The notes below the pieces were generated by a model. That model searched no databases. It saw only the letters and a program-made list of their open reading frames with translations, and was not told where the DNA came from. Positions 22,443 through 62,668 of a DNA stretch of 64,000 nt are shown piece by piece. The translations under genes and the position numbers were made by a program. The stretch spans positions 984,178-1,048,177 of the forward strand of contig OZ244590.1 of assembly GCA_965218205.1 (NCBI GenBank), read 5' to 3'. Origin of the DNA: Spirochaetia bacterium (GTDB taxonomy: Bacteria; Spirochaetota; Spirochaetia; WTKD01; G963693115). The number at the start of each line of letters is the position of its first letter. Positions within the stretch are counted from its first letter, which is position 1.

Positions 22443-22777
22443 TGGAGGTGGCGGGAATTGAACCCGCGTCTTAAAAGGGCAAAGTAGCACCTCTACAAGT
22501 TTAGTTTGCTGTTGGTTTTTGCAAAAAACGAAATGGCAAACACATTTTTTTCTTGCTCAGTCAAATAAAGTGTCCTCTCTCAGTCTTTGACATACAGAGA
22601 GAGTAGAGTCCCTAAGTGAACAGAAAGCCGTCTAGGAACATCAACGGTTCTGTAGCAACATAGTACTATGCTGCTAAAGCTAAATTGTTATCTGCATTTA
22701 TTGCAGTGTGGTAATTAGGTTACCAATCCACTTGCCATGATACTAATACTTCTTCCAATCGAGTCCTGTTCACCCCC
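22443..22777 (-). ncRNA. ssrA: tmRNA (transfer-messenger RNA)
   Basis: Minus-strand RNA begins GGGGGUGAACAGGACUCGAU and ends with T-arm GGGUUCAAUUCCCGC plus acceptor CACCUCC-A. The acceptor 5'-GGGGGUG pairs with CACCUCC and contains a G3.U pair. Tag ORF is GCA GAU AAC AAU UUA GCU UUA GCA GCA UAG = ADNNLALAA*. smpB lies ~900 bp away. CCA is not encoded. Confidence 0.85.
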
Positions 22778-28616: not shown

Positions 28617-28708
28617 ATGGTATTGCATAGAAAGAAATAAAAACACAATAATAGTGTATTGTGTTATAATAAACATGATATAATACATAATAATAAAAGG
28701 AGATGTAT

Positions 28709-31700
28709 ATGGATGAAAGAATAAGTAGCATGAAAAAAATCGGGGGGGGGGGGGGGGTACACTCTCGATATAAGCAAAACATAACTCTCGTTGCACTGTT
28801 TTTAGTGCTAGCAATAGTTACCCTCGTACTCGTAGGATGTTCGGAGGGCAGTAGCAGTTCCTCATCAGGGGGAGGAGGAACTTCACCAGTAACCCCGACC
28901 CTTGCATCACTGTCCAATGTGCAGATACAGCCAGCAGGCAATGACGGGACGCTCTCGTTACGTTGGCAAGCCCCAAGCGATGCCACGCATGTAGTAGTAA
29001 ACGCTACCTCTACTGCACCAGCACAAGTCATACAAGTGCGTGTTCCTGCAATAGAATATCGTGCATTGTTTCAACAAGGACAATCGTATAAACTCAAAGG
29101 CTTGCAAGCCCTCACCAATTACACTGTAGAGATAGAAGCCCAGAAAAACACGGAAGTATCACCAAAAACAACCCGCTCTGTGACAACACTAATAGATACT
29201 ACTACCCCACAGGACACATTGACACAGGTAGGACTGGAGAAGTCGGGGGATGGCATAAAGATAACATGGGACAAAGAGCGACTAGCAGTAGGCAAGACAG
29301 ACATAGCAGAAGCAACAATAGTGGTAAAAAGCACGACTGGTGCTACAGTGCTTGCACAAGCTACCGTGCAGAACCTACAACAAGGGGAAGTTACGCTTCC
29401 AAACATCTCCACGCTTGCAGGCATATCCTATGATATAGAAATACGCTACAAAGACAGAAATGACAACACAAGCAGTCCTGCAACAGTACTAGCAGGCGTG
29501 CAAGCATCAGCACTCTCACAAACAGTAGCAGCACTACCAGAGGCAGAACTTACAGTAACAGCAAACGATAAAGACAATAGCCCAGCCGATGAAAGCCTGC
29601 TTATTAAGTGGGGGAGCTTTGCCTTTGGAACAGGCAACACAGCAAAAAGCCTCTTAGTACGAGTAACAGCAACTGCAACACAGACAGTAGTAGCAGAGGA
29701 GACAATAAACAAAGATACCAGTGCAACCAATGTCAGCGGAGCAACCGCACAAAACAAAGAATACGCCACTGTGTATGTAGCAAAAGATGGCATAGCACTC
29801 ACAAAACTCTACGGCACACTTACATACAAAGTAGAAATCTATGTCTCTCAAAACGGAAAATACTCCACTGCAGTGTCAAAAGAACAAGCAACAACCGACA
29901 AAACAACAAAGCCCGCGACCAATGTAAGTGCCGTAGGAGGAGCAACAAGCATAGTAGTAAGCTGGCAAGCACCCAATGTACGAGACTATGCAGGAGTGAC
30001 TATAACAGCAACAGAGAAAGATAGCGATAAAGTAGCAAAGACAGTAACAATAACAGACAGAGCAGTACGCAACACACAGATACCAGGCCTCAAAGCCACC
30101 ACCGAGTATACAGTGGCAGTAGTATCGATGGACTATGCAGGCAACAAAGGAACAGAAGCAACAGCCACAGTAGATACAGTAACAGATAGCACCGTTCCCG
30201 ATCCAGTAACAAACATACAAGCAAGCTATCCCTTCGTATCAGCAACAAAAGTAGGTGCACAGATAACATGGACAGCACCCGATGCAACAAAAGCCAAGAA
30301 CAAAGACATAAAAGAATACAGCATAAGCATACAAGAGAAAGGCATAGACACCACAGTACTGAACGAGAAAAAAATACCCTATCCCACAACATCGCTCTCT
30401 GTCGAAGCACTCAGTCAAGGCAAAACATACACAGTAACAATACAAGCAATAGACTATGCAGAAAACAAAAGTAGCCAAGAAACACAAGACATAACAACAC
30501 CCACCCCACTCACAGCACCCTCAGCAGAACTCTTTCAAAGCAAGCCCGCCCTCGTTACAACAGGAGCAATACAAATAAAAGCAACCTTTAGGCAAGCACC
30601 TGGATTAAATAAGTACTACACCCTGCGTATGTACGACAGCACTACACTGGTAGCAGAAAAAAGCATAACAGGAATAGCTACCACCATTAGCTTTGGCATA
30701 GCAGATGGCATAGAAGTATCAGCAACACAAGCAACTGCAAAACAATATAGCTTTACGTTTCTCACAGTAGAAAATAACAGAGTAAGCCCCCCAACAACAC
30801 TCACAGACAAAGTAGCAGTATACGATGTAATATCCACTGTCCCGCCCGCACCAGAAAGTCTCACTCTGCTTATTGCAGAATCAACAGCAACAAGCGATAC
30901 CGTACAGTACGAGTTTCAAGCAGGAACAATTACCGACAACCATAAAGCACCCAATGACAGCAAACTCAAACCAGCAAACATACAGTACAAAGTATACATA
31001 GTAGCAGGAGACCAGAGTACTAAAAGCATAGCAGAAATAAAAGCAATAACAGGAGTACAAACACAAAGTATAGCAGGAAGTAGCACTTTACGAGGAACAT
31101 TTATAGGAACAAAAGGAGCAGTATACACCATAGGCATAGAAGCAATAAACAGCCTGAACCCCTCTACCACAAAGAAAGCACAAAGCAAAGACCCCGCACT
31201 GATACAAACACTAGAACTGAGCACCATCCCCAGATCAAAAGCAACAGCCCCCTCTACCTCGTCCTTAGCAAACAAGCTGGTAGTATCACAATCAACAAAC
31301 ACAACAGGAACAATAAAGCTAGTACTCACACAATTAAGCACAATAACAGGAGCAAAAAACAAAGACGGCACAACAGTAACCAGCAATGATGAGCTAGTAT
31401 ACACCGTGTATGGCTTACAGAAAGACACAACCCCAACAGTAGCAGAAGTACAAAGAGGCAGAAAAGTAACTATAGGCACAGCAAGGAACGGAGTGTACAC
31501 AGTACCAGCGCTTAGCAGTATAGGCGTGACATCCCCAACAGTAGCAATAAAAGGAGCAACAAAGTATCACTTTGTAGTAGAAGTAGCCATAAAAACAGAC
31601 CCAAGCAAAAAAGCAGTATCGACAGTGGCAACAGTAACAACCGCATCACAAGCGACAGATCCCGCAGAAGTAAGCAACATACAAGTAAAAGGAGTAGAAG

Positions 31701-33367
31701 GAAGGAATGCAAAGCTATCGTGGACAGCCCCCAGCCTTACTGCAAGCCATAAAACAGACACAGGAGATACCCTAGCAGTAGCACAAGTATCGTACAAAGT
31801 ATACAAAGTAGCAAAAAGTGGCAGTACACAAAGGACAATAGCAGAGATAATAATAGCAGCAGGAGGAAGCCCCACAACAACAGCAGCAGGAACAACCAAC
31901 AGCACTCTGACAGGATTGACAGTAGGCACCACTTACGAAATAGTAGTACAAGCAGTAAACAGCACCGATCCCAACAAAGAATCAAGAGGAGTCCGCAAGG
32001 AGTTTATCGCAAAAGAAGCCTATGGAGCACCAGGAAAGCCCACCATACAAGCAAATGCACAAGGAGCTACCATAGTACTTACCATAACAGCCCCAACCGT
32101 AAAAGGAACAGCAGAAGACGGAACAACTACTCTCAGAGATAATCAAATAGATTACAAAGTATACTATATAGCCTCAAATACAAACATAAATGGAGCAACA
32201 GTAAAAACACAGGCACAAGCAGCAAGCGATGCACAAGTAGGAGCAGAAAAAGACGATGTGCCAACAGGAGCAACAAGCTATACAATACGCAACCTACGAT
32301 TGAATACAAAGTACTATATCACCGCAGTAGCAGTAAACAGCCTCAAAAAGACAAAGGTATCAGCAGAAGCAACAGCAGTCTCTGCCAGCACCCCAACAGT
32401 AGTGATAGGAAACACTACAAAGGTTTCAGCAACAGTAGGCACAGCACTCGCACAAAATACAACGAGAGTACTTACCAGCATTAGTCCTAGTGGACTATCA
32501 TTTACCTGTGATGAAAGCACAGTAGATAACGATAACAGCACCCTCAAACAAGAAACAGGCCTAACAGTAACATTTGCAAAAAATACCAATACAGTAACGA
32601 TAACAGGCACAGCAAATAAATCAAATATACATGATACTGCTATAACTGAGTATAACTATGGAGTAGTGGAATGTACCATTACCTCTGCGGGAGCAAACTC
32701 GGGACAAAAGGTACTTGCGACTATCAATGTAGAGACAGGGCTGGTGAAACTCCCAAGCGAAGTAGCGAGCTATTACAGACCAACAACAAAGACAGCACTG
32801 CAAGCTATTATCACTGCAGAAAAAACAAGACAAGGTTCAGGAGGAAACAATAACCCTAGCCCCAACCTCAACATGATAGATACGAGTGCTATTACTGATA
32901 TAAGTCAATTATTTTATCAAGATAAGACTTTTAACGGAGACATAACACAGTGGAATACCAGCAATATAGAGAATATGTTCCGTATGTTTGGGAAAGCAAA
33001 GGCTTTTAATCAAGATATAGGAGCTTGGGATACAAGTAAAGTTACTAGTATGGGTAGTATGTTTGTTGATGCAAGTGCTTTTAATCAAAACATAGGAAAC
33101 TGGAATTTGAGTAATGTAAAGGATGCGAGTGTTATGTTTTTTCGAGCAAGTGCTTTTAATCAAGACATAGGAAATTGGAATATTGGGAGTAGTTTGATTA
33201 GTGCTGGTGCTATGTTTGAGGATGCCACTAAATTTGATCAAGATTTATCATCATGGAAATTGTGTAAACTTCAAATTCAAGCAAGAAGTATGTTTAATGG
33301 TTCAGCTATGGCTGGCAAAACAGCACAGTACCCAAAGGTTAAAGGCGATGCAGCGTGTTCATCATAG
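28709..33367 (+). CDS. Giant surface lipoprotein: multiple Fn3/Ig-like repeats plus C-terminal DUF285/TIGR02167 26-residue repeats
   Basis: AAGGAG RBS 6 nt before ATG 28709 (track ORF starts 28703); signal peptide with lipobox 'LVLVGC'; about 8 tandem ~95-aa modules each with a 'W.AP' Fn3-like motif; C-terminus has 5 repeats of 'AFNQDIGNWNxSxVxxMxxMF'. Confidence 0.8.
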   Translation: MDERISSMKKIGGGGGVHSRYKQNITLVALFLVLAIVTLVLVGCSEGSSSSSSGGGGTSPVTPTLASLSNVQIQPAGNDGTLSLRWQAPSDATHVVVNATSTAPAQVIQVRVPAIEYRALFQQGQSYKLKGLQALTNYTVEIEAQKNTEVSPKTTRSVTTLIDTTTPQDTLTQVGLEKSGDGIKITWDKERLAVGKTDIAEATIVVKSTTGATVLAQATVQNLQQGEVTLPNISTLAGISYDIEIRYKDRNDNTSSPATVLAGVQASALSQTVAALPEAELTVTANDKDNSPADESLLIKWGSFAFGTGNTAKSLLVRVTATATQTVVAEETINKDTSATNVSGATAQNKEYATVYVAKDGIALTKLYGTLTYKVEIYVSQNGKYSTAVSKEQATTDKTTKPATNVSAVGGATSIVVSWQAPNVRDYAGVTITATEKDSDKVAKTVTITDRAVRNTQIPGLKATTEYTVAVVSMDYAGNKGTEATATVDTVTDSTVPDPVTNIQASYPFVSATKVGAQITWTAPDATKAKNKDIKEYSISIQEKGIDTTVLNEKKIPYPTTSLSVEALSQGKTYTVTIQAIDYAENKSSQETQDITTPTPLTAPSAELFQSKPALVTTGAIQIKATFRQAPGLNKYYTLRMYDSTTLVAEKSITGIATTISFGIADGIEVSATQATAKQYSFTFLTVENNRVSPPTTLTDKVAVYDVISTVPPAPESLTLLIAESTATSDTVQYEFQAGTITDNHKAPNDSKLKPANIQYKVYIVAGDQSTKSIAEIKAITGVQTQSIAGSSTLRGTFIGTKGAVYTIGIEAINSLNPSTTKKAQSKDPALIQTLELSTIPRSKATAPSTSSLANKLVVSQSTNTTGTIKLVLTQLSTITGAKNKDGTTVTSNDELVYTVYGLQKDTTPTVAEVQRGRKVTIGTARNGVYTVPALSSIGVTSPTVAIKGATKYHFVVEVAIKTDPSKKAVSTVATVTTASQATDPAEVSNIQVKGVEGRNAKLSWTAPSLTASHKTDTGDTLAVAQVSYKVYKVAKSGSTQRTIAEIIIAAGGSPTTTAAGTTNSTLTGLTVGTTYEIVVQAVNSTDPNKESRGVRKEFIAKEAYGAPGKPTIQANAQGATIVLTITAPTVKGTAEDGTTTLRDNQIDYKVYYIASNTNINGATVKTQAQAASDAQVGAEKDDVPTGATSYTIRNLRLNTKYYITAVAVNSLKKTKVSAEATAVSASTPTVVIGNTTKVSATVGTALAQNTTRVLTSISPSGLSFTCDESTVDNDNSTLKQETGLTVTFAKNTNTVTITGTANKSNIHDTAITEYNYGVVECTITSAGANSGQKVLATINVETGLVKLPSEVASYYRPTTKTALQAIITAEKTRQGSGGNNNPSPNLNMIDTSAITDISQLFYQDKTFNGDITQWNTSNIENMFRMFGKAKAFNQDIGAWDTSKVTSMGSMFVDASAFNQNIGNWNLSNVKDASVMFFRASAFNQDIGNWNIGSSLISAGAMFEDATKFDQDLSSWKLCKLQIQARSMFNGSAMAGKTAQYPKVKGDAACSS
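28742..28757 (+). repeat. G16 homopolymeric tract inside codons 5-10 of the giant lipoprotein gene, next to an A7 run
   Basis: Sixteen consecutive G encode GGGGG; a tract this long is hypermutable by slipped-strand mispairing. Confidence 0.9.
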
Positions 33368-33581: not shown

Positions 33582-34421
33582 TTAGTTAGGACTCTCTTTA
33601 GAAGTACAACTATTCTTCCATGTAGGTGGTGTATATTTGTTTCTGCTAGTCTTAAAGGCATCTTTACAATATATAACTTTGTCTACATTCCATTTAGATA
33701 AGTTTTTATTAAATGGAGAAGTACTTACAAAAGTATCAGTCATGTCAGTTACTTTATTTACATTCCATTTACTAATATCGTCATTAAATTTAGTGGATGC
33801 TCCAAATAAAGATTTCATATTTGTTATATTGCTAGTGTCCCAACCTGAGATAATTCCATTAAAATTTCCATAAATATTATTTTTGTTGTCTGATGATAAA
33901 ACATTTTTCAAGGATGTCATTTTACCAATATCAATATGGAGTAAATTAGGAGTATTATTATCAATAGTACTATCATCATTAGTATCCATTATATTCTTTA
34001 TGTACTTATCTAATTCTTCAGGTGTGCTAAAGGATCTTGTATACTGTAATTTCAACTTAAACTGTCCTTTTTGTTCATTGCCTTTTCGTATAAGGTAAAT
34101 AACAAAATCTTTAGTCAAGTCATTAAAATTGCTATCTCTATTGTTATCTGGCGTACCTGATAATTGCACTCCATTATCTACTTTCTTAAGTGAAAGTCCA
34201 CTAGGCAAAGGTTTATCTGTAGTATATGTATCTGACTTATTATATCCATCAAAAGTCATTGTAGATATACTGCTAATAGTCTCATTTATAGAAAGTGTAA
34301 ATTCTGGTAATTTTGATAAAATTGACCCTGAGCTTGATGTTGTGTCACTTTCACAACTTACCAATAAAATACTTGTAACACTAATTACAAGAGTAAAAAA
34401 TAATAATTTTGTTAGTTTCAT
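33582..34421 (-). CDS. DUF285/TIGR02167-repeat lipoprotein
   Basis: Lipobox 'ILLVSC'; the C-terminal half has 'WDTSNITNMKSLFGASTKFNDDISKWNVNKVTDMTDTF' repeats homologous to the neighbouring giant protein. Confidence 0.7.
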   Translation of the reverse strand: MKLTKLLFFTLVISVTSILLVSCESDTTSSSGSILSKLPEFTLSINETISSISTMTFDGYNKSDTYTTDKPLPSGLSLKKVDNGVQLSGTPDNNRDSNFNDLTKDFVIYLIRKGNEQKGQFKLKLQYTRSFSTPEELDKYIKNIMDTNDDSTIDNNTPNLLHIDIGKMTSLKNVLSSDNKNNIYGNFNGIISGWDTSNITNMKSLFGASTKFNDDISKWNVNKVTDMTDTFVSTSPFNKNLSKWNVDKVIYCKDAFKTSRNKYTPPTWKNSCTSKESPN

Positions 34422-56181: not shown

Positions 56182-58212
56182 CTACTTCTCTTTCTGTGCA
56201 TACCGTAAAAATTCCATGCTATATCTCCCTCTTCCTTCTGTGCTGTTTCTTAGTACTGTTGAAAATCCAAATAATGTACTAAGGGCAGACTCTGCATGAA
56301 TAATACTTATGTTTCCCTTTGTGTCAACATTGTGAATAATGCTGTTTCGTACATTGAGAGGTTGCATTGCATCTCCTACAAAATCAGTAGGAACAGTAAT
56401 AATTACTTTCATAATAGGTTCCATGCATACTACAGTAGCTTTGTGAGCAATAGTATAAAAAGCCTGTGCAGCAGAATAACGAAGTGACATTTCGGCTATA
56501 CTTTCGTTTCCTTCATAGGATATATCAAGAATATGCACATGGGTGTTTACCATAGGATACCCAAAAGCCACACCGCTTTTCATTGAATCTTCAATGCTGT
56601 TTTCGACATATCGTAGCCAAATATCAGCAACAGAGTTGGGTACTGCATTACTTATGATATTGCCCTCTTGTTCTGCTGCTCCTACTTGGAGTTCTATGCT
56701 TGCCTTAATGCTAAGATCTGTTTGTCCGGGAATATGATCTAGTGTGTACACTTCACTGTATTGAGAAGTAACCGCTTCTTTGTAATTGACAGTGGGATGC
56801 CCTTGACGAACAGGGAGTTTATAATCATTTTGTATTTTTGTGGCTAATACTTCTAAGTGGAGTTCTCCCATGCCAGAAATAAGTATTTGTCCCGTATTTT
56901 CATCTTCTTTATGATGAAAACTTGGATCTTCAATCTCTAATTTTTGCAACACTTCTAATAGTTGTTCTCTATCTGAGAGAGTTTGCACTTCAAGCGTGGT
57001 AGAGATAACAGGAGCTATGTTCTGAATGCCTTCTAGCATATATGCATCATGAGTAGAATCGCTAAAGCTATGTCCTGTGATAAATGATTTAGGGCCAATA
57101 AGCACTGCAATTTCTCCTGCATGTAACTCTTCGCACTGTGTTGATTTATTGGCATGCATCTTTAAGATACGCAAGACACGTTCTTTTTTTTGTGTGTTAG
57201 TGTTGATGACAGTGCTTCCTTTCTTAAGTGTGCCTTTGTATATACGAACATAATGCATAAGCCCATAGTCCTTATCGACAACAGACTTAAACACAAAGCC
57301 AAGAAGGGCATTTTTATACTCTTGCAACGGTTTAGTAGCGTTTCCGCTGGGAGACATTGCATGTAAAAGAGGGGGCGGTGTCTCTTGTGGGTAGGGCAGG
57401 TACTGGACAACAGCATCAAGGAGCGGTTGAACACCAATATTTTGTAAGCTAGAACCACAGAGCACTGGTAGCAGAGCATGCTCTTGCACTGCTTTTCGTA
57501 AGGTTTGAGTTAGCTCTTGATTGCTAATGGCCTCCTCGTTAAGAAATTTTTCGGTAAGCACATCCGAGTATTCTATAATTTTCTCTCTTAAGTGATTGTG
57601 CCATGTTTCTGCTTGTTCTTTATAGCTGTCTCTAATATCCTGTGTGCTATAGATGACTCCGTCACTGTTTTTGTCCCAGAGTATCTCTTTCATTTTAAGT
57701 AAGTCTATAATGCCCTCAAAATCTTTTTCGCTCCCAATGGGAATGTATAAAGGAAGAGCCTCACTGCTGAGTTTTGCTTGAATATCTTTAAGGACTGCGT
57801 AAAAATCTGCCCCAAGCCTGTCTATTTTATTGATATATGCAATTCGTGCTACATGGTAGTGTTCTGCCTGATGCCATACCGTTTCTGATTGTGGCTCAAC
57901 TCCCGAGACAGCACAGAATATACCAACAGCTCCATCAAGCACACGAAGTGAACGCTCTACCTCAATAGTAAAGTCTACATGACCAGGAGTATCAATAATA
58001 TTGATACTATGCTCGTGCCAATCAATAGTAGTACACGCAGAACTGATGGTAATACCACGATTCTGCTCCTGCTCCATCCAGTCCATCTGAGCCGTCCCAG
58101 TATCAACCTCGCCAATTTTGTGCGTCTTTCCTGCAAAAAATAACATGCGTTCGGTAGTAGTAGTCTTTCCCGCATCAATATGAGCAATAATGCCTATGTT
58201 GTGAATATTCAT
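56182..58212 (-). CDS. fusA: Elongation factor G paralog
   Basis: 676 aa; 'AHIDAGKTT' G1, 'DTPGH' G3 and 'NKID' G4 motifs plus EF-G domains III-V; not next to rpsG/tuf, so likely a second copy. Confidence 0.85.
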   Translation of the reverse strand: MNIHNIGIIAHIDAGKTTTTERMLFFAGKTHKIGEVDTGTAQMDWMEQEQNRGITISSACTTIDWHEHSINIIDTPGHVDFTIEVERSLRVLDGAVGIFCAVSGVEPQSETVWHQAEHYHVARIAYINKIDRLGADFYAVLKDIQAKLSSEALPLYIPIGSEKDFEGIIDLLKMKEILWDKNSDGVIYSTQDIRDSYKEQAETWHNHLREKIIEYSDVLTEKFLNEEAISNQELTQTLRKAVQEHALLPVLCGSSLQNIGVQPLLDAVVQYLPYPQETPPPLLHAMSPSGNATKPLQEYKNALLGFVFKSVVDKDYGLMHYVRIYKGTLKKGSTVINTNTQKKERVLRILKMHANKSTQCEELHAGEIAVLIGPKSFITGHSFSDSTHDAYMLEGIQNIAPVISTTLEVQTLSDREQLLEVLQKLEIEDPSFHHKEDENTGQILISGMGELHLEVLATKIQNDYKLPVRQGHPTVNYKEAVTSQYSEVYTLDHIPGQTDLSIKASIELQVGAAEQEGNIISNAVPNSVADIWLRYVENSIEDSMKSGVAFGYPMVNTHVHILDISYEGNESIAEMSLRYSAAQAFYTIAHKATVVCMEPIMKVIITVPTDFVGDAMQPLNVRNSIIHNVDTKGNISIIHAESALSTLFGFSTVLRNSTEGRGRYSMEFLRYAQKEK

Positions 58213-58261
58213 ATATTATAAGTGTAGTATAATACCAGCTTGGAGTGTTGGGAGGAGGCTT

Positions 58262-59737
58262 TTGTTATTAAATGATTGTGTAAATAATTTAATGGTGTGG
58301 TATAATGAGAATATGGAAGAGATTGAAGTAAAAAGTGTTAGTGAATATGTTGAAAAAGTGAGTGAAATTTACAAAGACGATGATTTTGTTCCTCACGATG
58401 AAGATGATGAATATAAAAAGATGCTATTTTTTAGAGGGCATGCAGATGAAGATTATAAACTTTTGCCGAGTATTTTTAGAGAAGGGCGGAAAAAAAGAGA
58501 TGAGAAAAGCATTTTAGATGAGTATAAATGTCATTTACCAAGATATACAAACATTAAACATTTAGATTTTGAAAAGGATAGAATGGAAATTTTAGCAGAG
58601 ATGCAACATCAAGGTATTCCTACACGGTTGCTAGATTGGTCTCTTTCCCCCCTCATAGCTCTTTATTTCGCTTTAAAGGAAGAAAGTGCTAGTAATGAAA
58701 ATGATGCTTGTGTGTGGGTATTTAATTATTGGAGACACTACGAGGAAGAAATAAATAATAAAGCAAAAGAAATGGTGATAAAAAAATTTTTTGATGATTC
58801 GGGAAAAGAGGGTGAAAAAAAGCTTCAAGATAGGTATATGGAAAAATTAATTTCTGAGTGGGAAAAAGCAGGTGAAAAAAATAAACAGAAGCAAGAACAG
58901 ATTACAGAAAAGATGAAAAAAGATTTTGAAAAACAAACTGAAAGTTTTCAAATAGAAAAGGAAAAGGAATTTGAATCATTATCACGTGAAGTAAGAAGAC
59001 AAAATAAAAAAAATTTCGAAAAATTTATGCAAGATAGTGTACAAAAAGGGAAAATGTCATTTGAAGCACATATGGAAGATATTATGGATAGTTTGCAGAA
59101 AGAGCATGAGAAAGACTTAGACTCTATTGAAGAAATTATATCTTCTGCTGAAAAAAAAGAATCTTCACAGATAGAACAATTTATTGAAACAAAAGAAGGA
59201 AAAAATGTATTGAAACAGTTACGAAATGAAATAGCGGTAGGGGTTAAAAATGATAATAAAAATATTTTAAACTCTTACATATTTTCTATACGTTCTGTAT
59301 CCACGCTAGGACGTGCTTTATTGGCTGATATTGATAGTGGTAGTGATGTAAATCATGTTTATGATACCTTATACTCAATGAGAGGAGAAAATAGAATGCC
59401 TCCTAAAGGGCTATTTTCTGATATTCTTACATGTCCAGTTGGTTTTATCCCATTATACCAGAATGATAGATTGATACATCAATCATCAGTGTTTACAATA
59501 CACGGAACAGATATAAAGTCTTTAGAGGAACAAAAGACTCAGGATGGGAAGCCATATACAGAAAAATACCTAAGAAAAATATGTATTCCTTACAGTTCAA
59601 AGAAAAAAATGTTAGAAGAATTGCATATGCTCTTTATAAATGATTATACTATTTTTCCTGATTTTGAAGGAATGAGTAAGCAATTTAGAGAAGCAGGGAG
59701 TTTATATCATTATCGTGTACAAAGTAGTCAAATCTAA
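58262..59737 (+). CDS. FRG-domain protein whose domain is interrupted by a ~200-aa Lys/Glu-rich coiled-coil insert
   Basis: N-terminal half 'LFFRGHADEDYKLLPSIFR...EMQHQGIPTRLLDWSLSPLIALYFA' and C-terminal 'NDRLIHQSSVFTIHG' fit the FRG (PF08867) signature; the middle residues ~170-380 are KEKEFE-type low-complexity helix. Start is ambiguous: TTG 58262 with AGGAGG 3 nt upstream, or ATG 58292/58313. Confidence 0.6.
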   Translation: MLLNDCVNNLMVWYNENMEEIEVKSVSEYVEKVSEIYKDDDFVPHDEDDEYKKMLFFRGHADEDYKLLPSIFREGRKKRDEKSILDEYKCHLPRYTNIKHLDFEKDRMEILAEMQHQGIPTRLLDWSLSPLIALYFALKEESASNENDACVWVFNYWRHYEEEINNKAKEMVIKKFFDDSGKEGEKKLQDRYMEKLISEWEKAGEKNKQKQEQITEKMKKDFEKQTESFQIEKEKEFESLSREVRRQNKKNFEKFMQDSVQKGKMSFEAHMEDIMDSLQKEHEKDLDSIEEIISSAEKKESSQIEQFIETKEGKNVLKQLRNEIAVGVKNDNKNILNSYIFSIRSVSTLGRALLADIDSGSDVNHVYDTLYSMRGENRMPPKGLFSDILTCPVGFIPLYQNDRLIHQSSVFTIHGTDIKSLEEQKTQDGKPYTEKYLRKICIPYSSKKKMLEELHMLFINDYTIFPDFEGMSKQFREAGSLYHYRVQSSQI

Positions 59738-59772
59738 TCACTCTAATGGAAAGTATACTATAATGGATTAAT

Positions 59773-60447
59773 ATGAAAAATAAAAATAGATATATATCTG
59801 ATTCTGTATGGGAAGAAATTGAGCATCATTTTTTAGATAAGAATACAGATAAAGAAAATACTAAAATAAAATTTATTTATAATGATGTAGTTAATTATCT
59901 TAATGAGCAAAATGAAACTATTACAGAGTTACAAAATAAAGCAAAACATTTTCTTACACTGAATATTACTCTTTGTACAGCATTTTTTGTATATCTCTTA
60001 AAAGATGATAGTGATATTTTAGCTAATTGGAGAAGTGTTGTAGGATTGTTTGCTATCTTGAATATTATATCATCAGTATTATTTGTGTGTGTACTATTCA
60101 TAAAAAGTTATCCATACACATATAATTCCCTTAAAGATTATGTTATTTTTAAATGGTATGAAGGATCTGAATATGATATTATTTACGCAAGATTAGTAAC
60201 ACTGCATAGGAAAGCAGAGAATAATAAACAAATTATTATAAAAGATACGAATTTTATAGGGATAGGTATTGTATGTACTATACTGTCTGTAATATCTCCC
60301 ATAGCTTCCATTTATTGGGATATATTGTCATCTAAAATACTACATTCAATATTCTTCTTAATAACTACTGCGATATTCCCAGTAATTGCTTTATCAATCT
60401 CTGTTTTTAGGTCTAGCATCATCATCTGTAGAGCCAGTCTTCATTAA
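59773..60447 (+). CDS. 4-TM membrane protein co-oriented with the FRG gene
   Basis: 224 aa; ~55-aa cytoplasmic N-terminus, then four hydrophobic helices; 36-nt gap after the FRG gene; very AT-rich. Confidence 0.5.
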   Translation: MKNKNRYISDSVWEEIEHHFLDKNTDKENTKIKFIYNDVVNYLNEQNETITELQNKAKHFLTLNITLCTAFFVYLLKDDSDILANWRSVVGLFAILNIISSVLFVCVLFIKSYPYTYNSLKDYVIFKWYEGSEYDIIYARLVTLHRKAENNKQIIIKDTNFIGIGIVCTILSVISPIASIYWDILSSKILHSIFFLITTAIFPVIALSISVFRSSIIICRASLH

Positions 60448-60630
60448 GTTTAATTCTCTCTTTAGCCTTTCAAGCTGACCTTTCATGTTTAGTAATTTTT
60501 TATGTTCCTCAGAATGACTACCATAAGATTCCTCAAGAAGAATTATTGATCCTGATTCTAATTCTAATTGTTGTATTTCTTTCTCTAATTGTTGTATTTC
60601 TCTCTCTAATTGTTGTATTTCTTTTCTCAT
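60394..60630 (-). CDS. Small heptad-repeat ORF (MRKEIQQLEREIQQLEKEIQQLE...), antisense to and overlapping the 3' end of the 4-TM gene
   Basis: 78 aa; its N-terminus is encoded by three perfect tandem 21-bp repeats; overlaps the + strand gene by 54 nt, so one of the two ends may be miscalled. Confidence 0.3.
   Translation of the reverse strand: MRKEIQQLEREIQQLEKEIQQLELESGSIILLEESYGSHSEEHKKLLNMKGQLERLKRELNLMKTGSTDDDARPKNRD
60563..60625. repeat. Tandem 21-bp repeat x3 (tctaattgttgtatttctYtY)
   Basis: Three head-to-tail copies with 1-2 mismatches at unit ends, preceded by a partial copy. Confidence 0.85.
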
Positions 60631-60739
60631 GTATACATGATACTATAGTAATATCAAAATGTCAACAACATTGGCAGAATGGAAATTTTTCACACCCAAA
60701 CTAAACAATAACGCCATAATACACTATAATATAAAATAA

Positions 60740-62668
60740 ATGGTATTTCACGCTCTCGCAATACATATACTAGAGCAATCTATACAGGCACTCTATGCTC
60801 CCTTGCTACAGGAAAGCAATGCCACTGTAGATAACGCTACGCTCTCTACTATTATGGGTATTCCCCCTAGCATAGACAAAGGAGACGTGGCTTTTCCTAT
60901 GTTCTTTCTTGCAAAGATTGCAAAGAAAAGCCCAAAAGATATAGCCGTACAGCTTGTTGAGTATATTATGAGCCAAAAAGACACACAAAATAGCAATAGC
61001 TATAATAATTCTCCAAAAAATTCCCTGCAGCTATTACAGAAAGTGCAAGCTGATGGGGCATATGTCAATGTATTTTTTCAAAGGACAGCTATTACTGCAC
61101 TGGTACTACAGGATATTGAGCAACAAGGACAGCAGTACGGAGCGACACTCCATTCGACAGCACACACCTATATTGATGCACAGCATAGCACTGAACCTAT
61201 GCTAAAAGGCAAACGCATAATGATAGAATATTCTGCCCCCAATACCAATAAGCCCTTACACATAGGGCATTTGCGTAACAATGTACTAGGAGAATCTATA
61301 AGTCGTATACTAGCCTTTTCTGGAGCAGAAGTGCAGCGAGTCAATCTTATCAATGACAGAGGCGTGCATATTTGTAAATCCATGCTCTCGTATCAGATGT
61401 TTGCACATGGAGAAACCCCTGCACAAGCACAGCAAAAGCCAGATCATTTTGTAGGAAGCTACTATGTAAAATACAGTAAGTGGGCAGAACAGCATCCTGA
61501 GAAAGCAGAGCAAGCAATAAATACCATGCTACAGCAGTGGGAGCAAAACGATCCTGAAACCCGAGCATTGTGGAAACAGATGAATACATGGGCGTTGGAA
61601 GGCATATTTGAAACCTACAAAGCTACTGATATTCATTTTGATACAATTTACTATGAAAGTGAAACCTACCAGCGAGGAAAAGAAGAAATTCTTAAAGGGT
61701 ATAAAAAAGGACTTTTTTATAAAGATGAGAAAGGAGCTATATGCCTCTCGTTAAAGGAAATAGGCCTTGATGAAAAAGTGCTGTTACGCTCCGATGGTAC
61801 AAGTGTGTACATTACCCAAGATGTAGGCACTGCCCTACAACGATACGAAGATTGGAGCTTTGACACACACATGTATGTTGTTGCAAATGAACAAACATAT
61901 CATTTTCAAGTATTATTTTATTTGCTCAGCACACTAGGCTTTGCTCCTGCCTGTAATAATGCTATGCAGCATCTCCACTATGGTATGGTACATCTTCCCG
62001 AAGGAAAAATGAAATCAAGAGAAGGGAAGGTCGTTGATGCCGATGATCTTATTGCTACTGTGTCTTCACTTATCAAAGAAGAAATATATGAACGCAACAG
62101 GCACGATGAGTTTGAAGATGTAGAAGCAGTGGTACATAACATAGCATTAGGAGCTATCCATTATTACCTGCTTCATGTAAATGCCAAAAAAGATCTATTG
62201 TTTAACCCTGCATCTTCTATATCGTTTCAAGGAAACACAGGCCCCTATCTACAATATACTTGTGCAAGAATCACCTCACTCTTACGAGAGTATAATCGCC
62301 AGCACAACCTAAAGCACAGTCAAAATTCCAGCACAGACACAGAGACTGCTGAAGCACCCGCCCCCCAAGATATGCAAAGCCTCTCCCAAAACTATAGCAT
62401 GCAAGATGAAGAGTGGAAGCTCATCATAAAGATGGATAATTTTGCCTCCATCATTACGCAAGTAATAGAAAAACACGACCCTTCACTCCTAGCGAAATAT
62501 GTGTACGAGCTTGCAAGCGATTTTGCACGATATTACCATAGTGTTCCCATTGTGAAAGAACAGAACCCTGACACACAGTCATTGAGATTGAGAATATGCA
62601 CAGCACTCTTACAGGTGATGAAAAATGCACTGCATCTATTGGTCATTCCCTATGTAGATAAAATGTAA
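60740..62668 (+). CDS. argS: Arginine--tRNA ligase
   Basis: 642 aa; 'HIGHLRN' class-I motif; ArgS anticodon-binding C-terminus ending in Met; carries a low-complexity insert (residues ~520-560). Confidence 0.88.
   Translation: MVFHALAIHILEQSIQALYAPLLQESNATVDNATLSTIMGIPPSIDKGDVAFPMFFLAKIAKKSPKDIAVQLVEYIMSQKDTQNSNSYNNSPKNSLQLLQKVQADGAYVNVFFQRTAITALVLQDIEQQGQQYGATLHSTAHTYIDAQHSTEPMLKGKRIMIEYSAPNTNKPLHIGHLRNNVLGESISRILAFSGAEVQRVNLINDRGVHICKSMLSYQMFAHGETPAQAQQKPDHFVGSYYVKYSKWAEQHPEKAEQAINTMLQQWEQNDPETRALWKQMNTWALEGIFETYKATDIHFDTIYYESETYQRGKEEILKGYKKGLFYKDEKGAICLSLKEIGLDEKVLLRSDGTSVYITQDVGTALQRYEDWSFDTHMYVVANEQTYHFQVLFYLLSTLGFAPACNNAMQHLHYGMVHLPEGKMKSREGKVVDADDLIATVSSLIKEEIYERNRHDEFEDVEAVVHNIALGAIHYYLLHVNAKKDLLFNPASSISFQGNTGPYLQYTCARITSLLREYNRQHNLKHSQNSSTDTETAEAPAPQDMQSLSQNYSMQDEEWKLIIKMDNFASIITQVIEKHDPSLLAKYVYELASDFARYYHSVPIVKEQNPDTQSLRLRICTALLQVMKNALHLLVIPYVDKM

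Follow-up and report, generated by a model that had tools for sequence, protein, structure and literature searches.

The stretch analysed here, called the window throughout, is 64,000 nucleotides of DNA from a Spirochaetia bacterium (assembly GCA_965218205.1, contig OZ244590.1, positions 984,178 to 1,048,177), and our subject is an island of low guanine-plus-cytosine (GC) content in it, which lies between the genes for elongation factor G (EF-G) and argS and carries three open reading frames (ORFs), genes 1 to 3. We lean, with some reserve, towards reading this island as the cargo of a hotspot, in which gene 1 encodes a stand-alone FRG-family protein of the PDC-S15 type, with a fold like that of ADP-ribosyltransferases (ARTs) and a long helical insert, and genes 2 and 3 are independent of it. 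An earlier note, made from the letters of the window, had proposed the three genes as a candidate novel defence or abortive-infection module. A conflict or defence role is plausible for gene 1, but a new three-gene system formed with genes 2 and 3 is unsupported by the comparison; the form of FRG protein with a long insert is new, and the FRG/PDC-S15 kind as such is already catalogued. The ORF list of the window confirms the three ORFs where the earlier note had placed them:

56182-58212, minus strand: EF-G, the left flank, called an EF-G paralog in the earlier note, which passes the TIGR00484 equivalog cutoff.
58262-59737, plus strand: gene 1, an FRG-family (ART-like) protein of 491 amino acids with a TTG start, assigned by Pfam PF08867, PADLOC PDC-S15 and phrog_4962.
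58314-60692, no strand: the variable low-GC island, 29.0% GC, bounded by conserved flanks and delimited by nucleotide comparison with L001, a contig of a related metagenome-assembled genome (MAG).
59773-60447, plus strand: gene 2, a membrane protein of 224 amino acids, from the ORF list and hydrophobicity.
60394-60630, minus strand: gene 3, a heptad-repeat ORF of 78 amino acids, from the ORF list and a public gene call.
60740-62668, plus strand: argS, the right flank, with a Pfam match.

Gene 1, in which the earlier note had recognised the motif blocks of an FRG domain, passes the Pfam FRG model (PF08867) with 77.1 bits against a cutoff of 25 (E = 2.1e-21), the match covering residues 55-145 and model positions 3-93 of 94. 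Twelve columns are invariant across 109 aligned FRG members, gene 1 included, and gene 1 keeps all 12 of them (R58, G59, R73, H116, T121, R122, L123, D125, R403, Q407, F411 and G415, in the numbering from the TTG start). Fourteen PADLOC-DB models of PDC-S15 match the protein, the best being PDLC04938 (E = 1.7e-47, 160 bits, in two stretches), and phrog_4962 matches it at E = 2e-42. Judged by its sequence, gene 1 is thus a match to PDC-S15, a single-gene phage-defence candidate that already has a name but is unvalidated; the expectation that the locus would match no system on record gives way in so far as PDC-S15 is named, and stands in so far as PDC-S15 is itself a candidate. The 145 PDC systems are candidates put forward by 'guilt-by-embedding', their genes being found within BREX, DISARM and restriction-modification (RM) loci (bioRxiv 10.1101/2024.01.29.577857). 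Going by titles and abstracts, we found no functional study of PDC-S15 in the literature, and the papers that name it look, from the same parts, like surveys of genomes or of phage susceptibility.

A search of 5.8 billion proteins returned 704 homologues of gene 1, nearly all of 270-340 amino acids, and close relatives were not found in scans of JGI metagenomes and of IMG/VR; look-ups of genomic context by exact sequence had neither gene 1 nor gene 2 on record. The TTG start of gene 1 is preceded by GGAGGAGG, with a GGAGG ribosome-binding site at 58251-58258, and the public gene call (P0001) begins at M11 and gives a protein of 481 amino acids. Some FRG proteins of ~400-450 amino acids in the homologue list (P0086-P0119, P0103) are fused to a SET domain (PF00856), and one FRG homologue is fused to a DnaQ-like exonuclease (PF00929); hence the FRG core is combined with other modules elsewhere.

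The FRG fold of gene 1 is split, as the earlier note had inferred from motif blocks on either side of a lysine- and glutamate-rich (KE-rich) insert. A profile of 280 nodes, built from 107 ordinary members of ~280 amino acids (the short-FRG profile), matches gene 1 in two stretches and leaves the part between them unmatched:

58316-58756, plus strand: N-terminal half of the FRG fold, residues 19-165 (nodes 4-135 of the short-FRG profile, E = 4e-52).
58757-59254, plus strand: KE-rich helical insert, about residues 166-331, unmatched by the short-FRG profile.
59255-59716, plus strand: C-terminal half of the FRG fold, residues 332-485 (nodes 136-276, E = 3.8e-33).

The N-terminal half holds the FRG motif itself (R58, G59) and the QHxGxPTRLLDW block (H116 to D125), and the C-terminal half holds RxxxQxxxFxxxG (R403, Q407, F411, G415). 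Because the Pfam model spans only the N-terminal half of the ~280-residue fold, what the earlier note had called the C-terminal block is the other half of that fold. The spacing from the invariant Asp to the invariant Arg is 277 residues in gene 1 and 266 in the homologue P0002, whereas the other 107 members have a median of 99 and a 5-95% range of 86-135, and the ~165 extra residues of gene 1 all lie at one point between the two halves. Among the top matches of gene 1, P0002 is the only other protein that carries the insert, which agrees with the earlier remark that the architecture is an unfamiliar one.

The insert consists of 16% glutamate and 16% lysine, and its hydrophobic periodicity of 3.3-3.7 residues was reached by 2 of 2000 shuffles. 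In the AlphaFold2 model of gene 1 (predicted template-modelling score, pTM, 0.72) it forms long helices with a predicted local confidence (pLDDT) of 47-78, and the flanking halves are mostly above 85; in the numbering of the 481-residue model, the C-terminal half has a pLDDT of ~84-96 over residues 380-470 and of 72-78 at its N-terminal end. Element by element, the secondary structure of the two halves maps one-to-one onto that of a short homologue, P0003, whose own model has a pLDDT of 94. Both halves are confidently modelled, and the correspondence suggests that the core is intact and the helical linker enlarged. Moreover, since all invariant family residues are kept, the enzyme core of gene 1 is probably intact. 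ZorA of the Zorya system also appeared among the matches of gene 1, weakly (E of 1.6e-4 or higher) and within the KE-rich insert only (residues 177-353). ZorA has a membrane domain of the MotA/ExbB type followed by a long tail, whereas gene 1 has no transmembrane (TM) domain, and because of this and of the confinement to the KE-rich insert the matches most likely reflect compositional coiled-coil similarity.

The FRG domain is not as uncharacterised as the earlier note had it. Published work (PMC9503650, PMC12522546) assigns Frg to the ART superfamily and predicts it to be an NADase or antiviral effector; the fold search points the same way. With the model of gene 1 as query, Foldseek ranked cholera toxin A1 and Arr first, below significance. 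ARTs were the top structural neighbours: pertussis S1, Scabin, KptA/Tpt1, CARDS and TccC3, and further exotoxin A, RES, Arr, DarT, diphtheria toxin, PARP3 and pierisin. Modest as their scores are, these neighbours form a consistent theme that agrees with the published assignment, and they suggest that the FRG fold resembles that of the ARTs. Like ARTs such as cholera/LT-A, pertussis S1, TreX, RES and DarT, gene 1 would have a split beta-sheet core made of an N-terminal and a C-terminal half; the Arg at its first strand, in the FRG motif, and the invariant Gln before a late strand recall the R...[QE] pattern of ARTs, a reading of motifs and not the outcome of an alignment test. Gene 1 differs from them in lacking the canonical ExE motif and any sequence-level match to a solved ART, a profile search of PDB sequences having returned no solved structure related to it. 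We know of no characterised ART with a long helical insertion between its halves.

The evidence for a hotspot comes from the composition of the island and from the same site in a second genome. To the eye of the earlier note, ~2.4 kb between two housekeeping genes had looked AT-rich, and indeed EF-G and argS have 40.1% and 40.6% GC, respectively, far above the value of the island. Windows of equal size across the 64 kb have a mean GC of 35.4% (standard deviation 3.1), with only 1.2% of them at or below the value of the island. P0002, the insert-bearing homologue named above (463 amino acids, 44% identity to gene 1), sits at the same EF-G/argS site in a MAG labelled 'Spirochaetia bacterium', where the gene order is Mfd-TrmB-EF-G-[FRG...]-ArgS. 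The flanks of the two genomes are 95-97% identical (ArgS 97%). Nucleotide identity stays at ~96% up to position 58313 of the window, ~17 codons into gene 1 (window 58262-58313 with L001 9968-10020, and the region upstream), then falls abruptly to 60-80%, and it resumes at 60693, 47 nt before argS. From the abrupt drop, the hotspot has its left boundary, of recombination or divergence, inside the 5′ end of the FRG gene. Beyond it the two FRG proteins differ most in the insert:

Gene 1 residues 21-160: 62% identity to P0002.
Gene 1 residues 161-355 (insert): 25% identity to P0002.
Gene 1 residues 356-491: 54% identity to P0002.

The island of the related MAG is 6.3 kb long with 23-30% GC, and its cargo 3′ of the FRG gene (L001:11619-16212) encodes a Cys-rich peptide of 67 amino acids, two ThiF/E1-like proteins and a UvrA-like double ABC ATPase of 740 amino acids. 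The Cys-rich peptide includes CSGGVSYCCTRTCRG, and the UvrA-like ATPase matches PADLOC mad3 at E = 2e-40; this cargo looks like a cluster for a ribosomally synthesised and post-translationally modified peptide or bacteriocin with a UvrA-type immunity gene, or like an E1-based conflict system. Look-alikes of genes 2 and 3 are absent from the island of the related MAG, and neither remnants of its cargo in the window nor remnants of the window's cargo in L001 were found. Near-identical flanks, an FRG allele of 44% identity and wholly different downstream cargo together indicate a variable hotspot. Thus, as far as the aligned sequences tell, the EF-G/argS site of this uncultured Spirochaetia lineage behaves like a hotspot at which cargo is swapped, probably by recombination in the conserved flanks.

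The same composition could instead mark the decayed remains of a mobile element, such as a phage, whose genes serve the element itself, as a superinfection-exclusion, host-takeover or toxin module, with the FRG protein as a phage-borne ART-like enzyme. Viral contigs often carry FRG homologues (202 loci in IMG/VR), the phrog_4962 match points in this direction, and the low GC and the orphan genes would fit. However, the island and its surroundings are free of integrase, tRNA and phage structural genes and of att-like flanking repeats, and the FRG ORF, in the same place on the chromosome, is intact in both genomes and has lost none of the invariant residues. We consider a mobile-element remnant unlikely; it overlaps the hotspot-cargo reading in any case, in that genes of this type commonly serve defence when carried by a prophage.

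Whether the hotspot cargo works as one unit depends first on gene 2. It is co-oriented with gene 1 and downstream of it, as the earlier note had it, at a gap of 35 nt (59738-59772) rather than 36, with no predicted terminator between. The four TM segments and soluble N-terminal region described there are borne out: ~59 amino acids at the N-terminus are soluble, and four hydrophobic segments follow at residues 60-76, 94-110, 161-177 and 193-209. Gene 2 stands alone in the collection of 5.8 billion proteins. A HMMER scan of 1.84 billion representatives without filters yielded just three weak relatives, of 182-185 amino acids (E = 6e-7 to 3e-4), with which it has the N-terminal region and three TM segments in common. 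It has no Pfam match, nothing significant turned up in NCBIfam, PHROGs, Pfam or a tblastn search of phages, and nothing of its family was found in the JGI metagenome and IMG/VR scans.

A two-gene signalling system has to be weighed, in which the insert of the FRG protein senses infection and an NAD+-derived molecule, or modification of gene 2, opens the 4-TM protein as an effector, such that the membrane collapses in the manner of Pycsar or Thoeris. Besides the close co-oriented arrangement without a predicted terminator and the shared low-GC island, it can draw on the inclusion of Frg among possible signal-generating ART domains by the Aravind group (PMC9503650) and on a likeness to the Pycsar membrane effector PycTM. 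As in Pycsar, a small multi-TM protein directly follows a soluble putative enzyme, and two of the three relatives of gene 2, P0122 and P0123 (L084 and L085), carry precomputed matches to Pfam PF18967 (PycTM) that are flagged 'weak', with PADLOC PycTM at E = 0.05 and 0.008, respectively. For gene 2 itself the PADLOC value is E = 0.87, and a fresh hmmscan against a 2025 copy of Pfam at E up to 1 did not return the PF18967 match of the two relatives. The likeness to Pycsar membrane effectors is thus weak and transitive, a lead and not membership. The soluble N-terminus of gene 2 is small for a ligand sensor, and the contigs of its relatives, ~1 kb long, show no FRG gene or informative neighbour, the C-terminal fragment upstream not being FRG-like.

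The pairing also fails to recur. It is seen once: P0002, the one further FRG allele with the insert, occupies the matching site in the related MAG, where neither gene 2 nor gene 3 follows it, and no relative of either gene was found across the ~90 FRG loci compared or in the JGI metagenome and IMG/VR scans. In 42 distinct viral FRG loci, out of 202 found in IMG/VR, a co-oriented neighbouring ORF with at least two TM segments was present in 1 of 25 cases downstream and 3 of 31 upstream, against a raw-ORF background of 40 of 718, so that multi-TM neighbours are not enriched beside FRG genes. None of the four closest short homologues of gene 1 has a TM partner beside it, and their contexts, some of them resembling defence islands, feature DUF4145, an Eco57I-type RM gene with a ThsB TIR gene, CHAT/VWA/PemK, and dynamin-like GTPases. 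The short FRG gene of P0005 (L087) has a type IIG Eco57I-like RM gene on one side and a ThsB-type TIR gene on the other, and that of P0020 (L090) lies directly 5′ of two genes for bacterial dynamin-like GTPases, beside the L11-L1-L10-L12 ribosomal protein genes. By these gene contexts the habit of FRG genes is a solo one, with variable, defence-island-like neighbours and no conserved partner. The proposal that FRG plus a 4-TM protein defines a system finds no footing in these counts, and we hold two-gene signalling to be distinctly unlikely.

The island holds no cyclase, helicase or nuclease, as the earlier note had stated, and scans with Pfam and PADLOC-DB found no CD-NTase, TIR, SIR2 or Macro domain in it. 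It differs from Pycsar in having no cyclase (PycC), the partner of gene 2 being ART-like, and from CBASS and Thoeris in lacking a signal generator, whether CD-NTase or TIR, paired with its effector. With Thoeris and other NAD+-based abortive-infection systems gene 1 shares predicted NAD+ chemistry, and possibly infection-triggered consumption of NAD+ or a signal derived from ADP-ribose, but the TIR, SIR2 and Macro domains of those systems and a conserved sensor-effector pair are lacking.

Gene 3 is convergent with gene 2 and overlaps its 3′ end by 54 nt. It was correctly described as antisense to gene 2, whereas the 21-bp repeats that had been called perfect have 0, 1 and 3 mismatches in the three units. 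The repeat and the nearest promoter-like site are as follows:

60559-60621, minus strand: three tandem 21-bp units encoding EIQQLER, EIQQLEK and EIQQLEL (Tandem Repeats Finder: period 21, 3.2 copies, 91% matches).
60637-60665, minus strand: TTGACA-17-TATCAT, the best sigma-70-like match of the region (11/12), a consensus match only.

Read in frame, gene 3 has codon log-odds of 0.42 bits per codon, a score that the 21-bp repeat inflates somewhat; its other frames score -0.3 to -1.8, and real genes of the window 0.19-0.39. The purine skew around gene 3 favours the minus strand. The public collection includes gene 3 among its called genes, although as a singleton, and the matches of gene 3 are of the low-complexity or compositional coiled-coil kind only. 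Gene 3 may well be a real coding gene. The total number of sigma-70-like matches in the region is not above shuffle expectation; the best of them ends 6 nt 5′ of the ATG of gene 3, hence the transcript of gene 3 may be leaderless. Hexamers like a -10 element lie 6-10 nt 5′ of the ATGs of gene 3 (60637-60665, minus strand), argS (60702-60730, plus strand) and gene 2 (59752-59772, plus strand), none of which has a clear Shine-Dalgarno sequence, a combination hinting that leaderless or near-leaderless transcripts are frequent in this organism.

The convergent overlap of 54 nt, the promoter-like site on the strand of gene 3, which is the strongest of the region, and the gene-like codon usage could also be taken to mean that genes 2 and 3 form a toxin-antitoxin-like pair apart from gene 1, in which the transcript or the coiled-coil protein of gene 3 controls a membrane-toxic gene 2. 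This argument is purely positional, neither gene has family matches or homologues to speak for it, and gene 2, at 224 amino acids, is far larger than type I toxins; we find such a pair hardly credible. A scheme that joins all three genes would have the ART-like FRG protein with its helical stalk sense infection and signal, through an NAD+-derived molecule or ADP-ribosylation, to a PycTM-like 4-TM protein, with gene 3 as a coiled-coil regulator pairing with the stalk. We rate this scheme very unlikely, but if true it would be a new defence system that runs from an ART to a membrane effector.

Elsewhere in the window, a tmRNA gene at 22443-22777 (minus strand) encodes the tag peptide ADNNLALAA. 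A protein of 1554 amino acids with DUF285 (BspA-like) and fibronectin-III domains is encoded at 28703-33367 (plus strand), with an extreme AT skew of 0.39-0.53 and 41-46% GC. It is adjoined by a DUF285 protein of 279 amino acids (33582-34421, minus strand), which lies in the other lowest-GC stretch of the window (28.6% GC, starting at ~33.4 kb).

Returning to the reading of the island as hotspot cargo with a stand-alone FRG protein, we suppose that the FRG protein of ~280 amino acids adopts a divergent ADP-ribosyltransferase-like fold, and that in gene 1 the short helical linker between the two halves would be enlarged by ~165 residues into long amphipathic helices. Gene 1 would use NAD+, and upon phage infection it may hydrolyse NAD+ or ADP-ribosylate a target, such that phage replication stops; the expanded helical stalk may be its regulatory, oligomerising or sensing part. 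Genes 2 and 3 would most likely be independent, lineage-specific cargo and not obligatory partners. Gene 1 resembles PDC-S15 (FRG proteins of ~270-300 amino acids) in that the 14 models match both halves with the same invariant residues and in that it stands alone in a variable low-GC island; it differs by the helical insert, present in one other protein among the top matches, and by not being embedded in RM, BREX or DISARM, the setting by which the candidates were nominated.

Several points weigh against this reading. One is that RM, BREX and other recognised defence systems, the sort of neighbours by which PDC-S15 was nominated, are absent from the island. To our knowledge, no FRG protein has been tested experimentally, and PDC-S15 itself is one of the 145 PDC candidates and explicitly untested (bioRxiv 10.1101/2024.01.29.577857). 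The hotspot is seen in two genomes only, with no empty site among them, a synteny scan of GTDB genomes with ArgS having returned a single related genome. Furthermore, given the arrangement described above, genes 1 and 2 may be co-transcribed and functionally linked.

FRG proteins are widespread (the 704 matches and the 202 viral-contig loci) and are predicted to be NAD+-using conflict enzymes. The insert-bearing alleles mark a single point at which the FRG fold tolerates a large insertion, and this point is also the most variable region of the family; hence it is a natural candidate for a regulatory or sensing surface and a useful experimental handle. The locus establishes no new multi-gene system; what it documents is a cargo-swapping hotspot between EF-G and argS in one uncultured lineage of Spirochaetia.

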